Assembly (NCBI GenBank): GCA_030636025.1
Contig: DAOVXQ010000002.1
Location: 10,848 to 74,847 of the forward strand
DNA from: an archaeon
GTDB taxonomy: Archaea; Nanobdellota; Nanobdellia; Pacearchaeales; GW2011-AR1
Direction: 5' to 3'
DNA length: 64,000 bases
Positions 17,402 to 24,336 of this stretch are shown one piece after another. The position numbers and the translations under genes are program-made. Every line of letters begins with the position of its first letter. Within the stretch, counting starts at the first letter, position 1. The notes beneath the pieces were generated by a model. That model had not been told where the DNA came from. It saw only the letters and a program-made list of their open reading frames with translations, and did no database searches.

Positions 17402-18961
17402 ATGAAAAGGAGGGATGAAAAGGCACAGAGCCAGATTATTACAGTTGTTTTGATTGTTTTAGTGGCGCTGGTTATTATTGCGATTGTTTGGGGGGTTATC
17501 CAAAATGCAATTAAGCAAAGCAGTGAGGAAATTGAGGTCGATATTCTAAGTGTGGATTTAAAAGTCAAGCTGGGTTCGGTTTTTATAGATGAAACAAACT
17601 CTAACCAGCTTTTTTTTGATATCACAAGAGGCACAGATAAGGCAGAACTAAAACATTTAAGAGTTTTCCTTATTGACGAGGATGGAGTTCAAAGCGAGGT
17701 TTATATTGTTAATGATTTCCCAAAACAATTAGAGACAAAAACAGTTCTTTTAGATATTTCAGATTTTAGCGGGACTATTGCAGAAATTTTAGTTTATCCT
17801 GTTTCAAAATCTGGTAAAATAGGGAGAGAAGAAAAATACGAAGTTCCTGAAGTAGGAATATCAACAGGCACTCCTCCAGATTCTCCTCCAAATGTAATCT
17901 CTCCCGAGGATGGAGGAGATGATGGGTGTGGTGATGGAGAGGTTGAATATGGAGAGGGTTGTGCTATTGATGTTAATGCCTTGGAGAGTACGTCTTATAA
18001 TTTAGATGTCGAAGGAGCTACTTATGTTTTGACTGATGATATTTCAGTTGGTAATAATGGGATAACTATTGCTGCGGAGGGTATTACTCTTGATGGAGCA
18101 GGATATAGTTTGACAGGTGCTGGTTTTGGGTGGGGAGTAATCGCGGATAATCAAGATAGTCTTACTGTGAAGAATTTTGGAAATATTGGAAAATTTGGGA
18201 GGGAGGTTTATTTTAATAGTGTTAGTAATTCAGTTATTGAAGATAATACTATGAATTCAGAGATGTCTCCGGACAGTAATTATGCGATTTATTTGAAAAA
18301 TGGAGGTTCCAATAGGGTTGAGAATAATAATATTGACTTGAGTACGTCTTCAGGAGATTCTTTTGGGGTTTATTTAGGTGTTGATACAGGTAATACTTTT
18401 GGGGATAATGAGATAATTGGAAATAATATAAAAGTTTTCGGTTCATCTTCTTCATCTTCAGGGATTTATTTATCTGCTTCTGGAACTTCAAACTCAAACA
18501 TAATCCAAGATAATACAATTGAATCTTCAACTTATGGAGTTCGGTTATTTGCTTCTGGAACTTCAAACTCAAACATAATCCAAGATAATACAATTGAATC
18601 TTCAACTTATGGGATTTTTTTATATACTTCTGGAACTTCAAACTCAAATATAGTTCAGGACAATACAATTAGTTCTTCACAATATGGGATATATTTATTT
18701 GGTTATGGAACTTTGGATTCAAACACAATTCAAGATAATACAATGTCTTCTTATTCTGAATATGGGGTTCGTCTTGTAACTGGTTATGGGGGGGTGTTGA
18801 GTAATTTATTAGCGATAGGGAATAGTGCTTGTCAAGAGGGTCTAAATGGCTTAAGTTGTTCTGGAGGTGAAATTTCATTTGATGAGAGTTCTACAGGAAA
18901 TATATTTGAAGGAGTAAGTTGCTCAGAAATGAATCCTAGTTATTATTCTAGTTGTCCTTAA
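17402..18961 (+). CDS. pilin-like (class III signal peptide) surface protein with parallel beta-helix repeats
   Basis: N-terminus MKRRDEKAQSQIITVVLIVLVALVIIAIVWG is followed by repeated NxIxDNTIxSSxYGIxL units. Confidence 0.6.
   Translation: MKRRDEKAQSQIITVVLIVLVALVIIAIVWGVIQNAIKQSSEEIEVDILSVDLKVKLGSVFIDETNSNQLFFDITRGTDKAELKHLRVFLIDEDGVQSEVYIVNDFPKQLETKTVLLDISDFSGTIAEILVYPVSKSGKIGREEKYEVPEVGISTGTPPDSPPNVISPEDGGDDGCGDGEVEYGEGCAIDVNALESTSYNLDVEGATYVLTDDISVGNNGITIAAEGITLDGAGYSLTGAGFGWGVIADNQDSLTVKNFGNIGKFGREVYFNSVSNSVIEDNTMNSEMSPDSNYAIYLKNGGSNRVENNNIDLSTSSGDSFGVYLGVDTGNTFGDNEIIGNNIKVFGSSSSSSGIYLSASGTSNSNIIQDNTIESSTYGVRLFASGTSNSNIIQDNTIESSTYGIFLYTSGTSNSNIVQDNTISSSQYGIYLFGYGTLDSNTIQDNTMSSYSEYGVRLVTGYGGVLSNLLAIGNSACQEGLNGLSCSGGEISFDESSTGNIFEGVSCSEMNPSYYSSCP
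18476..18775 (+). repeat. four in-frame 75-bp (25-aa) tandem repeats inside the beta-helix gene
   Basis: Units start at 18476, 18551, 18626 and 18701. The first two are nearly identical at the DNA level (SGTSNSNIIQDNTIESSTYG...). Confidence 0.85.
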
Positions 18962-19198
18962 ACTTTAATAAACCAATTTTTAGAGTGATTATAGATTTGC
19001 AGAGTGTTTTGAAAGAAGAGCCAGAGATTATACCTGTTGTGAAGAATAAGGGTCCTGGGTTGGTAAAGGATATCCAGATATTTGGTTAATTAAAACACCC
19101 TAATGGAAATATTAATTAAAAAATTAATCTCCGTCGGTAAACTCTTAAAATATTATACAAACATTTTTAAACTGATTCTGCAATAGATTTTTAAGAAG

Positions 19199-19618
19199 AT
19201 GGTTAAAGTTTTAGATTTTAAATTAATAAGATACATTAATTTGTTTAGCAGGGTTACGAGAGTAAGATGTAAACATTGTTTTTTGTATAACAATATGATA
19301 GTTTTTGCTGTGCTTAGGGGATTTATTCCGCAGGCAATTGGACAGGGAAATAAAAATTTGAGGAAATTAAGTGAATTGACAAGGAAGAAAATAAAAATTG
19401 TTGCTTTGCCGAATGGGAAAGAAGACATTGAAAATTTTGTTTCGATGATTATTTCTCCTGTGAAATTTAAATCAATTGAAATTAGAAATGATGAGGCAGT
19501 GATAACTGCGAGTTTGCAAAACAAAGCATCATTAATCGGAAGAGGAAAATGCAGATTAAACGAAATGCAAAATGTTCTTGAGCAATATTTTGGAATAAAA
19601 AAATTAAGAATTAAATAA
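19199..19618 (+). CDS. nusA: archaeal NusA-like KH-domain protein
   Basis: Two KH-like modules (IGQGNKNLRKLSELTRKKIKIV, ...IGRGKCRLNEMQNVLEQYFG). Conserved position upstream of S12. Confidence 0.8.
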   Translation: MVKVLDFKLIRYINLFSRVTRVRCKHCFLYNNMIVFAVLRGFIPQAIGQGNKNLRKLSELTRKKIKIVALPNGKEDIENFVSMIISPVKFKSIEIRNDEAVITASLQNKASLIGRGKCRLNEMQNVLEQYFGIKKLRIK

Positions 19619-19687
19619 GTTTAAAATTTGATAAGTTCTAAGGGACTGCGGAAGTTTTAAAAACCTTTATTTTGATTAATTATTAAG

Positions 19688-20110
19688 ATGGGATTGAATA
19701 ATGCGACAAAGTTGGTAAAAAATAGACGAAAGTTTAGATGGAAAGATAGGAAATACAAAGTGAAAACTCTCGGACTTTTCAAAAAATCAGACCCTCTTGG
19801 TGGAAAAAATCAGGCAAAAGGAATTGTAACAGAGAAAGTTCAAAAAGAAGCAAAACAGCCAAACTCTGCAATGAGAAAATGTTGCAAGGTTCAGTTAATA
19901 AAAAATTCTAAAGTTGTCACTGCATTTATTCCAGGGAATTTAGCTCAAAAATTCGTTGATGAACATGACGAAGTTATAATTGAAAGAATTGGGGGAAAAC
20001 AGGGAAGAAGTAAGGGAGACATCCCTGGAGTCAGATGGAAAGTTATTAAAGTAAATGATCAGCCACTCGCAAGATTGTGGATGGGCAAGATTGAGAAGGG
20101 GAGACGATAA
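19688..20110 (+). CDS. rps12: 30S ribosomal protein uS12
   Basis: [18 protein letters not shown]...VTAFIPG...[15 protein letters not shown]. Confidence 0.95.
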
Positions 20111-20406
20111 TGAATCGCAATACTGGACTAAGGAGAAACCAAGTAAGGCATTTGCAAGCATTAGTAGAAACTGGGGACAATGTCGCGGTTTATTTGGGTT
20201 CGGCCAAGGTTCAGCTTAGGGGAGAAGTAACTTTTAATGGAGGTTACGAATTCCATCATAGTGGTGAGCAGACTGATGCTATTAGAGGACAATGTTCTAA
20301 TCCCATCTATTTAACATTGAATAAAATAAAACGTTTTGTCTATGGTTCTAAAATGGTTCTCGTTAAGGGAAGAGAAACTCAGGTTCCTACGGAGGTGCAT
20401 ATTTAG
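20110..20406 (+). CDS. 98-aa ORF inserted after S12, hypothetical
   Basis: Its ATG overlaps the S12 stop (TAATG). No recognisable family. Flanked by S12 3'-end copies. Confidence 0.45.
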   Translation: MNRNTGLRRNQVRHLQALVETGDNVAVYLGSAKVQLRGEVTFNGGYEFHHSGEQTDAIRGQCSNPIYLTLNKIKRFVYGSKMVLVKGRETQVPTEVHI

Positions 20407-20481
20407 ATGGTGCAGATGAAAGTTTTTGGTCTATGGAAATTAAATAATCAATCATGTAAGATTGAGAAGGGAAGGCGATAA
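20407..20481 (+). pseudogene. degenerate duplicate of the S12 C-terminal coding end
   Basis: Reads MVQMKVFGLWKLNNQSCKIEKGRR*. The last 7 codons encode the same KIEKGRR* as the S12 end (20087-20110), with synonymous changes. Confidence 0.55.
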
Positions 20482-20482
20482 G

Positions 20483-20782
20483 ATGGGAGAAGGAAGTATT
20501 GGAAGATTTAAGTATATTTCTAAGAAAATGTTATCTTGTCGAAACGCATTTTATTTTTCTCAAGAAGAAAGTGTTAGTGAAGAAATGATAAAAAGTTTAA
20601 GTAGTATGGGTACAAACAGTCAAGTTTTAGATTGTTGCGAAGATAATTTGTTTATATATCAAATTGGAGATTGTGCTGTGAGCTTAAGTTATGCAGCGAA
20701 GGATGCTTCCATTGAAGTGTATAATAAAGATTTAAATAAAAGAAATAAATCTATAAGTAAACTTGAGGTGATGTTTGCTTAA
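20483..20782 (+). CDS. 99-aa hypothetical protein
   Basis: ATG follows the duplicated S12 stop (CGATAAGATG), mimicking the S12/next-gene junction. No family recognised. Confidence 0.4.
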   Translation: MGEGSIGRFKYISKKMLSCRNAFYFSQEESVSEEMIKSLSSMGTNSQVLDCCEDNLFIYQIGDCAVSLSYAAKDASIEVYNKDLNKRNKSISKLEVMFA

Positions 20783-20783
20783 A

Positions 20784-20978
20784 ATGACAATAAAATTAAT
20801 AAACATGGACGAATTAATGTTTGGATTGGCTCCTGAAGATTTAAGGAGATATGGGGCGATTGTTGTTAGAAATATCCCTAAAACTAAAAAACAATCTTTA
20901 AGTTTTGGTGGTTTTGAAGGAGATATTCAAAAAACAAATTTTGATGAAAGATATGCTTTATGCAGGAGAGTTAATTAA
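20784..20978 (+). CDS. 64-aa hypothetical protein
   Basis: Its stop overlaps the S7 start (TAATG). No family recognised. Confidence 0.35.
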   Translation: MTIKLINMDELMFGLAPEDLRRYGAIVVRNIPKTKKQSLSFGGFEGDIQKTNFDERYALCRRVN

Positions 20979-21658
20979 TGGCAGAACAAGAAATACAACA
21001 AATTCAGGAAGAAAATAATAGCGAACCTGTTATAGACCAGATGGCTGAAATTGAAACTAAAACAGATGAGTTCAAATTATTTGGATTATATGATGTTAGT
21101 GAGATTAAAGTCGAAGACCCTGGGATGAAAAGATATATAAATTTCACTCCGAAATTATTAGTTAAAAGTTATGGCAGAAATCGGGAGAAATTTTCAAGAG
21201 GGAAAATTAATTTAATTGAAATCTTTGCAAACCTTGTTGCTGTTCCTGGACATCGAGGGAAAAAACACAAAATCCAGACAAACTGGAAAACAGGAAAATA
21301 TTCTCAGAATATGAGGATTGTTTTAAATTGCTTTGAAATTATTAAAGAAAAAACAAAAGAAAATCCTGTTCAAGTTTTTATCAAAGCAATTGAAAATTCT
21401 GCACCAAAGGACGGGGTCACAGTAATTGAATACGGCGGAGCAAGATACCCTCAGGCAGTTGACATCTCGCCATTAAGAAGGGTCACAATGACAATAAGAA
21501 CAATGGTTCACGGAAGTTATGACAAATCTTTTAATAAAAAAACAAAAATTGAGCAGGCCTTAGCATCAGAAATAATAAAAGCTTACAACAAAGACAAAGA
21601 CAGTTATGCAATGGGTAAAAAAAATGATTCTGAAAAACAGGCAGATAGTGCGAGATAA
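20978..21658 (+). CDS. rps7: 30S ribosomal protein uS7
   Basis: FKLFGLYDVSEIKVEDPGMKRYINF..., GGARYPQAVDISPLRR. Confidence 0.9.
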   Translation: MAEQEIQQIQEENNSEPVIDQMAEIETKTDEFKLFGLYDVSEIKVEDPGMKRYINFTPKLLVKSYGRNREKFSRGKINLIEIFANLVAVPGHRGKKHKIQTNWKTGKYSQNMRIVLNCFEIIKEKTKENPVQVFIKAIENSAPKDGVTVIEYGGARYPQAVDISPLRRVTMTIRTMVHGSYDKSFNKKTKIEQALASEIIKAYNKDKDSYAMGKKNDSEKQADSAR

Positions 21659-21714
21659 ATTTATATATACTCTATTAAATAATTCTTTTTAAACTATTTT
21701 TAATTTAATTAACA

Positions 21715-22059
21715 ATGGTAAAACAAATAATGTTAGATGAAATTGTTTTACAGAGTGATATTAGCCCTCAAAAATCAAATTTTCTTGAAGCATGTAAAAA
21801 AAGAATAAACGAGGCAGTTGATATTTATGCAGAGATAAACCCAAAATTTAATAGAAATTTATCTCCTGAAAGTAATCCTTTTCAGATGATTATTGAATCT
21901 TCAAAAAATTATGATGCAGAGATAAGTGCAAGAGCTTGGTGTTCTATTGATTCAATCAGACCAAAAAACAATCTAAAAGAAAGAGTTCATATTCTTAGAG
22001 TAGATAGTGAAATGTTTCTCTTTGATTACCAAGGGCAAAGTTTTAGAATTAAATATTAG
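21715..22059 (+). CDS. 114-aa hypothetical protein between S7 and EF-2
   Basis: Clean ORF with no recognisable family. Confidence 0.4.
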   Translation: MVKQIMLDEIVLQSDISPQKSNFLEACKKRINEAVDIYAEINPKFNRNLSPESNPFQMIIESSKNYDAEISARAWCSIDSIRPKNNLKERVHILRVDSEMFLFDYQGQSFRIKY

Positions 22060-22146
22060 AGATGAGTGATTAAGAAAAAGAAATTACAATTTCATTTCCA
22101 AAGTAAAAACATTTAAAAACCGATTTTTATATCCTTAAATACAATT

Positions 22147-24336
22147 ATGGCAAAGAAAGAAACATCATTAGAAAAAATAAGAAGAATCTGTGTTGACCAA
22201 GAGAGAATTAGAAATATAGCGACGTCTGCGCACATTCACCATGGGAAAACTGCTTTGACAGATAATCTTTTGGCTGCGGCTGGGATGATGTCTGAAAAAT
22301 TAGCAGGGGATTTAGAAGGTGGAATGGCGACATGGCAACATTCAGATGAGCAAGAGCGGTTATTAACAGTAGATGCTGCAAATGTTTCAATGGTTCACGA
22401 ATTCGGCGACAACGAATACATGATTAATTTAATCGACACTCCCGGACACGTAGATTTCTCAGGTAATGTTACAAGGGCAATGAGGGCAATCGACGGGACA
22501 ATCGTCTTAGTCTGTGCTTCAGAAGGAATAATGCCCCAGACAGAAACAGTAATCAGACAAGCACTAAGAGAAAGAGTAAAACCAGTTCTTTTCATTAACA
22601 AAGTTGACAGAATGATTAAGGAATTAAAATTAACCCCGCAGGGAATGCAGGAAAAATTCGTTAAAATAATTGACCACTTTAATTTATTGATTGAACAGAT
22701 AGCTGAAAAAGAATTCATAGAAAAATGGAAAGTTCACGTCGGTGACGGAACAGTTGCATTTGGTTCTGCAAAAGACAATTGGGCAATGTCTGTCCCATTT
22801 ATGCAGAAAAAAGGAATAAGTTTCAAAGATATAATTGATTTATATGACAAAGACGAAGAAGAAAGAAAGAAATGGGTCTGGGATAATGCACCTCTGCATG
22901 AAGTTTTACTTGACATGACAATTAAACATTTGCCAAGTCCTGTCGAAGCACAGAAATACAGGATTCCGAAAATTTGGCAAGGCGATGCAGAATCAGAGTT
23001 CGGTAAAGGGCTTGTTAGTTGTGATGCAAAAGGAGAGGTTGCATTTATTATTACTAACACAATTATTGATTCAAAAAGCGGGAAAGAAATTTCAGCAGGC
23101 AGATTATTTTCAGGAACATTAAAACCTGGGATGGAAGTTTATCTTAACAATGATAAAGTAAAAAGAAGAATTCAGCAAGTTTTGATTTACAACGGAATTA
23201 AACCAGAACAAATGGAGGCGGTGCCTGCTGGAAATGTCCTCGCTATAACTGGAATTATCTCAGAGCCAGGAGAGACGATTACTCTTGGACCTCAAACAGT
23301 TTTTGAAAACATTAAGCATATTTTTGAGCCAGTAATCACAAAATCAATTAGTGTTTCAAAACCACAAGACTTGCCAAAATTAATTGAGGTTTTGAAAAAA
23401 GTTGCAAAAGAAGACCCTTCATTAAAAATTGAAATTAACGAAGAGACAGGGGAAAATTTAATGTCTGGTATGGGTGAGTTGCATTTGGAAATTATTGAGA
23501 ACAGAATTAAGACTGAGAAAAATGTTGATGTTAAAACTTCAGAACCGATTGTTGTTTATCGGGAGACTGTTATGAAAGAAGGGGCTGTTGGCGAGGGGAA
23601 ATCACCAAACAAACACAATTTATTTTTTATTCAAGTTGAACCATTAGAAGATGAAGTTTACAAGGCAATTAAAGAAGGCAAGATTTCCGAGGGCAAATTC
23701 AAAAAAAGAGAATTAGAAAAATGGGAAACTCTTGCAGAAGCAGGTGTTTCAAATGATGAGGCAAGACAATATAAATATATTTACAGAGATTGCGTTTTTT
23801 TAGATAAAACAAAAGGAGAAGTTCATATTGGTGAGGTTATGGAAATGGTTTTGGATGGTTTTGAGCAGGTTGTTAATGCAGGGACATTGTCGAGAGAGCC
23901 ATGTATGAAAATGAAAGTTTCGTTAGTTGATATTAAACTTCACGAAGATGCGATTCACAGGGGGCCTGCACAGGTTTATCCTGCTGTCAGGGACGCTATC
24001 AGGAGTTCTGTTGCTGGTGCTGGTGCTTGTTTATTTGAGCCAGTTCAAACATTATTAGTTGAAGGACCTTTGGACCATATGGGAGATTTAACAAAATTAT
24101 TCCAGGGCAAAAGAGGACAAATCACAGACATTCAGCAAGGAGCAGGACAAATCACAATAAAAGTTAAACTCCCTGTTGCAGAAATGATTGGATTAGCAAG
24201 TGATGTTCGTAGTGCAACAGAAGGCAGAGGAACATTCAGTATGATTGACCAGTCATTTGAAAAAGTCCCACCATCAATACAACCAAATGTTGTGAGGAAG
24301 ATTAGGGAAAGAAAAGGGCTGAAGGAGAATGAATAA
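22147..24336 (+). CDS. fusA: elongation factor 2 (aEF-2)
   Basis: AHIHHGKTALTDNLL and DTPGHVDF G-motifs, plus the diphthamide-site context HEDAIHRGPAQV. Confidence 0.95.
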   Translation: MAKKETSLEKIRRICVDQERIRNIATSAHIHHGKTALTDNLLAAAGMMSEKLAGDLEGGMATWQHSDEQERLLTVDAANVSMVHEFGDNEYMINLIDTPGHVDFSGNVTRAMRAIDGTIVLVCASEGIMPQTETVIRQALRERVKPVLFINKVDRMIKELKLTPQGMQEKFVKIIDHFNLLIEQIAEKEFIEKWKVHVGDGTVAFGSAKDNWAMSVPFMQKKGISFKDIIDLYDKDEEERKKWVWDNAPLHEVLLDMTIKHLPSPVEAQKYRIPKIWQGDAESEFGKGLVSCDAKGEVAFIITNTIIDSKSGKEISAGRLFSGTLKPGMEVYLNNDKVKRRIQQVLIYNGIKPEQMEAVPAGNVLAITGIISEPGETITLGPQTVFENIKHIFEPVITKSISVSKPQDLPKLIEVLKKVAKEDPSLKIEINEETGENLMSGMGELHLEIIENRIKTEKNVDVKTSEPIVVYRETVMKEGAVGEGKSPNKHNLFFIQVEPLEDEVYKAIKEGKISEGKFKKRELEKWETLAEAGVSNDEARQYKYIYRDCVFLDKTKGEVHIGEVMEMVLDGFEQVVNAGTLSREPCMKMKVSLVDIKLHEDAIHRGPAQVYPAVRDAIRSSVAGAGACLFEPVQTLLVEGPLDHMGDLTKLFQGKRGQITDIQQGAGQITIKVKLPVAEMIGLASDVRSATEGRGTFSMIDQSFEKVPPSIQPNVVRKIRERKGLKENE

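Follow-up and report, generated by a model that had tools for sequence, protein, structure and literature searches.

How does an orphan gene come to lie inside an essential operon, with the end of the same ribosomal protein gene on either side of it? The question is raised by a stretch of 64,000 nucleotides (nt) of archaeal DNA, here called the window (contig DAOVXQ010000002.1, positions 10,848 to 74,847, assembly GCA_030636025.1). The window contains the conserved archaeal cluster rpoB - rpoA - NusA - S12 - S7 - EF-2, with extra open reading frames (ORFs) at several junctions. Its genome, G000, is of the reduced, DPANN-like kind (0.73 Mb, 31% GC with a mean of 31.1%, 86% complete). Between the genes for the ribosomal proteins S12 and S7 four ORFs follow one another on the plus strand, namely o98, a mini-ORF of 24 codons, o99 and o64. 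The spacing does not exceed 1 nt anywhere in this chain, the junctions from S12 to S7 being TAATG, TAG-ATG, TAAgATG, TAAaATG and TAATG. A first-pass annotation had noticed that the S12 3' end recurs behind o98 and had suggested that a cassette was captured at a conserved gene end. Judged from the sequence, the locus is probably the scar of a duplicating recombination that joined two different S12-S7 intervals.

Two S12 3' ends around one orphan gene

The S12 gene itself (19688-20110, 140 amino acids (aa), Pfam PF00164, E 4.6e-39) is intact, and its product is 88-96% identical to the S12 proteins of 22 species of the same genus. Its last 24 nt, AAGATTGAGAAGGGGAGACGATAA (20087-20110), encode KIEKGRR* and overlap with their stop codon the start of o98 (TAATG). 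They are repeated on the same strand as AAGATTGAGAAGGGAAGGCGATAA (20458-20481) with 22/24 identities. Both differences are synonymous third-position changes (GGG/GGA and AGA/AGG), and the longest exact word common to the two tails measures 14 nt. Local alignment of the S12 tail with the S12-S7 gap gives z = 9.9 against shuffled sequences, and the similarity is not due to chance. The duplication reported in the first-pass annotation is thereby confirmed, as is the statement that o98 lies between two S12 tails and that the next gene uses the second one as it would a genuine S12 end: the ATG of o99 follows the stop codon of tail 2 after 1 nt (TAAGATG), just as genes behind the real S12 end do in 22 relatives.

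This arrangement is confined to G000. When 24-mer pairs with at most two mismatches within 1 kb were searched in the 64-kb window, the sole other non-trivial pair was found at 2599/2717; the remaining pairs are repeats within one protein gene and a microsatellite. The comparison sets comprised 401 genomes at the level of the family, 49 at that of the genus (g1) and 400 at that of the order. These are species representatives distant from G000, with S12 DNA at most 85% identical. A degenerate KIEKGRR* pattern occurs once each in 243 of the 401 family genomes, and only in G000 twice in one locus. Among the 49 genus genomes, too, G000 alone has two such tails in one locus. A second tail-like match in G551 was dismissed as a chance hit, since it has no S12 context.

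The S12 echo continues upstream of the 24 nt. AAATTAAATAATCAATCA (20437-20454), which encodes KLNNQS, matches positions 20048-20065 of S12 (KVNDQP) at 14/18 nt, with a P value of about 0.002 against random genomic 21-mers. A single TGT codon then replaces the S12 residues LARLWMG, which corresponds to an in-frame deletion of 18 nt. The segment 20437-20457 is best read as decayed S12 codons, and the second tail is evidently what remains of a genuine S12 3' end. The first-pass annotation had argued that a repeat confined to 24 nt, with no empty site in any relative, would have no mechanistic meaning. No empty site was found in relatives, but the similarity is not confined to these 24 nt and the finding stands.

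The upstream part of the remnant is decayed (4 of 18 positions changed, in addition to the deletion), whereas the last 24 nt carry two silent changes only. This preservation can be read in two ways. It fits a divergence of the two tails at a time when both belonged to working S12 alleles. Alternatively, tail 2 may have been kept because it serves as the translation initiation region of o99. The first-pass annotation had also raised the idea that tail 2 might be closer to the S12 of another lineage. Copy 2 does differ by one mismatch from the S12 tail of G021, compared with two from that of G000 itself, although with 24 nt this is not significant. The last codon before the stop, the rare CGA, is common to both tails and would point to the same lineage, or to gene conversion, for the two.

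The enclosed gene, o98 (20110-20406, 98 aa), has an unusual composition. Its GC content of 39.7% places it in the top 1.2% of the ORFs of a genome with 31.1%, while o99 and o64 both have 29%. The codon positions behave as in coding sequence (GC1>GC2>GC3). No match to o98 was found in Pfam, in PHROGs or in the 400 genomes of the order, and among 5.8 billion proteins only o98 itself was retrieved. In a full HMMER scan, 1.84 billion representatives yielded one weak, repeat-like match. Residues 24-71 (20179-20322) are similar to a giant surface protein of 3627 aa, with an E-value of 9.5e-6 summed over 10 GEVED repeats (PF20009), about 40% identity and the common pattern L.G.v.FNG..F...GE. We take this resemblance as a hint at most. 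An AlphaFold2 model calculated from the single sequence was unusable (predicted local distance difference test score, pLDDT, 34). Nothing in o98 resembles o99-o64, nor was any likeness to S12 seen beyond the tail.

The joint between S7 head and S12 tail

The mini-ORF (20407-20481, MVQMKVFGLWKLNNQSCKIEKGRR*) starts directly after the o98 stop codon, and its peptide reads in the order MVQMKVFGLW-KLNNQS-C-KIEKGRR*. In the first-pass annotation everything upstream of tail 2 had been taken for a shortened S12 C-terminus. This is correct for KLNNQS; the N-terminal half, MVQMKVFGLW (20407-20436), is instead the start of an S7 gene. In outgroup families and in the genus g48, S7 is of a short type which begins directly behind S12 with M-V-x-M-K-[LIV]-F-G-L-W-D. 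The relic agrees with the true S7 start of g48 (L060) at 25/30 nt, in contrast to 17/30 nt for the S7 gene of G000, and hence is not a recent copy of the resident S7. In the genome of G000 it ranks best of 22,685 ATG-initiated 30-mers against the g48 start, and in all six frames of that genome the motifs MV.MK and K[LIVM]FG[LIM][WYF] occur together only here. Across the 401 family genomes the pattern ATGGTNNNNATGAARNTNTTYGGNYTNTGG was found at this site and at the genuine S7 start of six of the eight g48 genomes, with no control matches. The 48 other genomes of the genus yielded no real match; a hit with two mismatches in G261 lacks an ATG, and reversed-pattern controls matched twice.

A DNA match between CAGATGGAAAGTT and CAGATGAAAGTT was also considered, by which MVQMKVFGLW would be an S12 echo as well. 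It scores 20, compared with 13.9+/-2.4 for shuffled sequences, of which 48 out of 2000 scored as well. This reading was rejected, as the match does not keep the reading frame and the S7 start gives a clearly better one in frame.

The mini-ORF is accordingly a chimera, in which a 10-codon head of a foreign-type S7 is fused to the last ~20 codons of S12 in decayed form. Its order is the reverse of the natural junction, with the S7 head first and the S12 tail second. Such an order is the expected product of a tandem or Campbell-type joint of two intervals.

Could there have been no event at all, with the similarity produced by convergence of a purine-rich ribosome-binding region, by a chance match or by a chimeric metagenome assembly? 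Junctions of the type ...AGATAAAATG recur in front of many gap genes in relatives, with 11-nt identities that arose by convergence, and the genome is indeed metagenome-assembled. However, 22/24 identities together with the adjacent in-frame 14/18 and the 25/30 match to an S7 start lie far beyond the null expectation, and an assembler would not be misled by exact shared words of 14 nt at most. Three assemblies contain the head-tail joint, although no natural haplotype has it. Besides the window, a scaffold from ENA and a Logan contig carry the identical structure; they are 99.9% identical to the window and differ from it by single-nucleotide polymorphisms elsewhere. The structure was therefore assembled independently and is not an assembly artefact, as far as this can be excluded without reads. 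We regard the absence of any event as effectively refuted.

In the 3' end of o98, 9 nt ahead of the ATG of the mini-ORF, lies a Shine-Dalgarno-type site, GGAGGTG (20391-20397). A 5-mer of this kind at -20 to -4 is found in 9% of the ORFs of G000, compared with 2% at a control position. With the GGAGGTG aimed at the ATG of the relic, o98 and the S7 head give the impression of two genes that once functioned as a pair. A parallel exists in g48, where G125 has an ORF of 88 aa between S12 and a short-type S7. The mini-ORF has an uninterrupted frame, is equipped with a GGAGGTG site and an ATG, and closes where o99 starts; at present it may act as a relay which couples ribosomes along S12>o98>mini-ORF>o99>o64>S7.

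Import, local duplication or integration

Two of the intervening genes appear to have been present before o98. Both o99 (20483-20782, 99 aa, native-like in composition) and o64 (20784-20978, 64 aa, with a stop codon overlapping the start of S7) look like older residents of the gap. The o99 protein shares 20-27% identity and the motif YQIG[ND]C.V.L with gap ORFs of G015 and G021, and the o99-like ORF of G021 follows S12 directly with TAATG. A profile of such ORFs recruited no new members across the 49 genus genomes. For o64, homology to the ORF directly upstream of S7 in G005 is supported by z = 6.2 and 0 of 500 shuffles; homology to the corresponding ORF in G019 runs via that of G005. Neither o99 nor o64 has a match in Pfam or PHROGs. 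Exact-protein look-ups of S12 and o99 gave no other records, and the cluster of 99%-identical o99 proteins leads solely to the near-identical contigs with the same structure.

As to the source of the second interval, we lean towards import from another lineage. Two facts speak for it, the deviant composition of o98 and an S7 head that was not copied from the resident gene. Before the event the lineage would have had the order S12 - o99 - o64 - S7, with o99 right behind the S12 stop codon. The incoming fragment would have derived from another archaeon with S12 - o98 - S7, the latter of the short type starting with MVQMKVFGLWD. Presumably, the conserved S12 3' end served as the homologous anchor of this fragment, while the opposite end, which had broken behind codon 10 of the donor S7, became attached to S12 sequence some 20 codons ahead of the stop. 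This could have happened by circularisation and a single (Campbell-type) crossover, by unequal crossover between co-resident chromosomes or by homology-facilitated illegitimate recombination. The data are compatible with each of these routes and give no preference among them; the type of crossover, like the direction of transfer, is what we infer from the final arrangement. The event would have pushed the old S12 tail, o99 and o64 downstream. Later, an in-frame loss of 18 nt would have shortened the relic and its upstream part would have degenerated, with the last 24 nt almost unchanged, presumably because they form the initiation region of o99. The resulting order is S12 intact - o98 - [S7 head relic + S12 tail] - o99 - o64 - S7 intact. 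The S12 3' end is the sole sequence common to both intervals and is the segment present twice. Capture at a gene end, as put forward in the first-pass annotation, agrees with this in that recombination took place at a conserved end; in place of a captured cassette, a joint of two S12-S7 intervals is proposed.

A local origin has to be weighed against this. In an ancestor with S12 followed directly by a short-type S7, about 95 nt, from S12 codon ~120 to S7 codon 10, could have been doubled in tandem, and o98, o99-o64 and the long N-terminus of S7 would have been added later by separate events. Doubling of the junction would also give the head-then-tail order, the CGA codon of both tails suggests a single lineage of origin, and the short-type S7 which abuts S12 in outgroup families and in g48 may be the ancestral state. 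On the other hand, neither a short-type S7 start nor the relic is present in the 48 other genus genomes searched. The duplication would consequently have to predate the genus and yet have survived in one species only, and a neutral relic of 30 nt should not stay 83% identical to the g48 S7 start for so long. The model would also call for three or more additional insertions, each independent and precisely at a junction, and both the deviant GC content of o98 and the Shine-Dalgarno site aimed at the relic would be left unexplained. A simple tandem duplication is moreover contradicted by units that are not homologous throughout, as o98 is unlike o99-o64 or S12 and the relic agrees with the resident S7 at 17/30 nt only. 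We consider an old local duplication unlikely and favour import over it.

The direct repeats resemble those left by integrases. An element with an attachment (att) site like the S12 3' end could have left attL and attR, most of it being deleted afterwards with o98 remaining. As in the attL/attR pairs at 3' ends of tRNA and protein genes, including islets of the CIME (cis-mobilizable element) type, the insert is bounded by direct repeats, of which the left one supplies the working 3' end and so leaves the target gene intact, which is the classic att signature. Unlike in att duplications, the insert is just 347 nt long and holds o98 alone, with no recombinase gene, and a foreign S7 start, which integration does not predict, precedes the right repeat. 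None of the S12-S7 gap ORFs has a Pfam or PHROG match, there are no terminal inverted repeats or attC-like hairpins, and no related element was found in phage families or in any protein database searched. Site-specific integration is thus a quite improbable source of the repeats. Other mobile elements fare no better. For a transposon or a miniature inverted-repeat transposable element (MITE) the repeat of at least 24 nt (45 nt with the decayed part) stands against target-site duplications of 2-15 bp, and no inverted repeats are found at the ends of the insert. An integron cassette finds no counterpart in 20385-20500, which folds no better than shuffled sequences (z -0.78) and holds no inverted repeat.

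Campbell-type integration is known mainly from plasmids and laboratory constructs. It shares with our locus the doubling of the homologous segment around the insert, and the circle joint, here S7 head to S12 3' part, would likewise lie beside the second copy. In contrast to the usual cases, the circle required here, of natural origin, ~400 bp in length and with 60-odd nt of homology, is a hypothetical one.

The closest described process appears to be displacement in bacterial toxin loci. In Rhs, contact-dependent inhibition (CDI) and type VI secretion system (T6SS) effector-immunity loci, C-terminal or sequential displacement has been attributed to homology-facilitated illegitimate recombination (Kirchberger et al. 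2017, PMC5361080, citing Jackson 2009, de Vries & Wackernagel 2002, PMC122324, and Prudhomme 2002, PMC122325). According to this model a conserved 5' gene anchors the modules, and older ones with 3'-end remnants pile up downstream (PMC5361080). The S12-S7 interval shows the same layout, that is, a conserved upstream anchor gene, a newer module right behind it, an older one displaced with a 3'-end remnant, and an array of resident genes behind the intact conserved gene. S12 is full length with o98 at its stop codon (TAATG), and the S12 remnant (22/24, upstream 14/18) precedes the displaced o99. Several features differ. The anchor here is an essential archaeal ribosomal protein gene rather than a polymorphic toxin gene, the modules are orphan ORFs and not toxin-immunity pairs, and the scar also holds a donor-type start of the downstream conserved gene, S7. 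Furthermore, one displacement is visible here, and the mechanism is an inferred one in both systems.

A number of observations weigh against import by recombination at the S12 end, and against the relay. No empty site or intermediate was found in the genomes of the order, in protein collections, in the near-identical contigs or in a metagenome scan, and the scan for the chimera joint gave 0 matches. No close relative with S12-o99-o64-S7 was found, and the near-identical contigs all carry the insertion. A donor with o98 did not turn up in any collection searched. Neither S12 tail resembles the g48 allele and both share the rare CGA codon, which makes a donor-derived anchor not demonstrable, and no mosaic breakpoint was seen in S12 in comparison with 29 relatives. 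The S7-head relic is just 30 nt long, short-type S7 starts exist in other families as well (MVQMK... in L028), and an old vertical origin of the relic is possible. The similarity by which o99 is placed in a family of gap residents is weak, and its membership is suggestive. As regards the relay, the frame of the mini-ORF would be open by chance with a probability of ~0.1.

Insertions at other junctions and in relatives

The length of the S12-S7 gap in the genus ranges between 0 and ~950 nt, and the gap is filled mostly with unrelated small ORFs. Insertions with duplicated junction sequence occur between S12 and S7 in two further genomes, one of this genus and one of g48. In G022, of the same genus (L007, G022:C102, 1030-1251), a perfect 20-nt direct repeat, TAAAATGGAAGAACAAACAA, consists of the S12 stop codon and the first 16 nt of S7. 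It flanks an insert of 202 nt with a hydrophobic ORF of 66 aa between S12 and S7. As a null, 1 of about 390 pairs reached 16 nt. The repeat at this junction indicates that duplicating insertions at the S12/S7 junction recur. In the g48 genome G125 (L063/L071, G125:C1), the insert measures 267 nt, S7 normally overlapping the S12 stop codon in this genus. The ORF of 88 aa mentioned above is cysteine-rich and begins with the first 8 nt of S7 itself, ATGGTAAA.

Elsewhere in the window, at 2602-2757, a sequence of 34 nt, TTAAATAAATTAGGAGGTAAAAATGAAAGACAAG, occurs twice in direct orientation (period 118 nt), its two exact copies enclosing an insert of 84 nt. It comprises the end of a gene for a 378-aa protein, a GGAGGT site, an ATG and four codons (MKDK). 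Copy 1 opens an ORF of 12 codons and copy 2 an acidic one of 41 codons; an initiation region has been doubled here in the manner seen at S12. These cases suggest that the insertions which survive in coupled operons are those that duplicate an initiation region. A genome-wide scan for direct repeats was dominated by paralogs and uninformative.

Two other junctions of the cluster carry lineage-specific genes, namely an ORF of 114 aa between S7 and EF-2 (21715-22059) and a beta-helix protein of 519 aa between rpoA and NusA (17402-18961). No duplicated ends of neighbouring genes were found around these two insertions. The ORF of 114 aa has no matches in Pfam or PHROGs, and an Rfam search of 19000-22200 gave none either.

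The intact S7 gene of G000 (20978-21658, 226 aa, Pfam PF00177, E 2.5e-32) is of the long type with an acidic N-terminal extension (20978-21080 in the window). All S7 genes of g1 that were inspected have such a variable acidic extension of 20-30 residues, whereas the outgroup families and g48 lack it. The origin of the extension may be linked to insertions ahead of S7. Directly upstream of S7, a family of acidic ORFs of ~55 aa ending in ...RR[FH]P[KR] was seen in several species of the genus (L002, L006, L009, L012, L018 and L022). Pairwise comparison within a small database gave E-values from 1.6e-6 to 8e-3. In these ORFs the terminal RR codons (of the AGGAGA type) also provide the ribosome-binding site of S7.

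The S12/S7 junction of the family might even be a regular slot at which small orphan genes are captured and exchanged by short homology, at a translationally coupled site and without a dedicated recombinase, in cassettes bearing pieces of S12 tail and S7 head. Only duplicating insertions would survive, since they give both the newcomer and S7 a working initiation region. We hold this extension to be doubtful. If it were true, the scar in G000, the repeat in G022, the ORF in G125 and the unrelated contents of the gaps of 0-950 nt across the genus would be products of one process.

DPANN-type archaea have tiny genomes. Nevertheless, lineage-specific orphan genes are scattered through the operon that is most conserved in them (rpo-NusA-S12-S7-EF2), which raises the question of how such genes enter an essential and tightly coupled unit and leave it working. 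The scar described here is of an ordinary kind in an unusual place, and as one event in one lineage it carries moderate weight. The locus preserves the joint of one orphan-gene gain. If our interpretation is correct, the newcomer arrived within the S12-S7 interval of another organism, the conserved gene end served as the recombination anchor, and the displaced end took on a new role as initiation region for the gene behind it. This would extend the displacement model of bacterial toxin loci to archaeal housekeeping operons and would provide a concrete, testable route of orphan-gene gain in reduced genomes.

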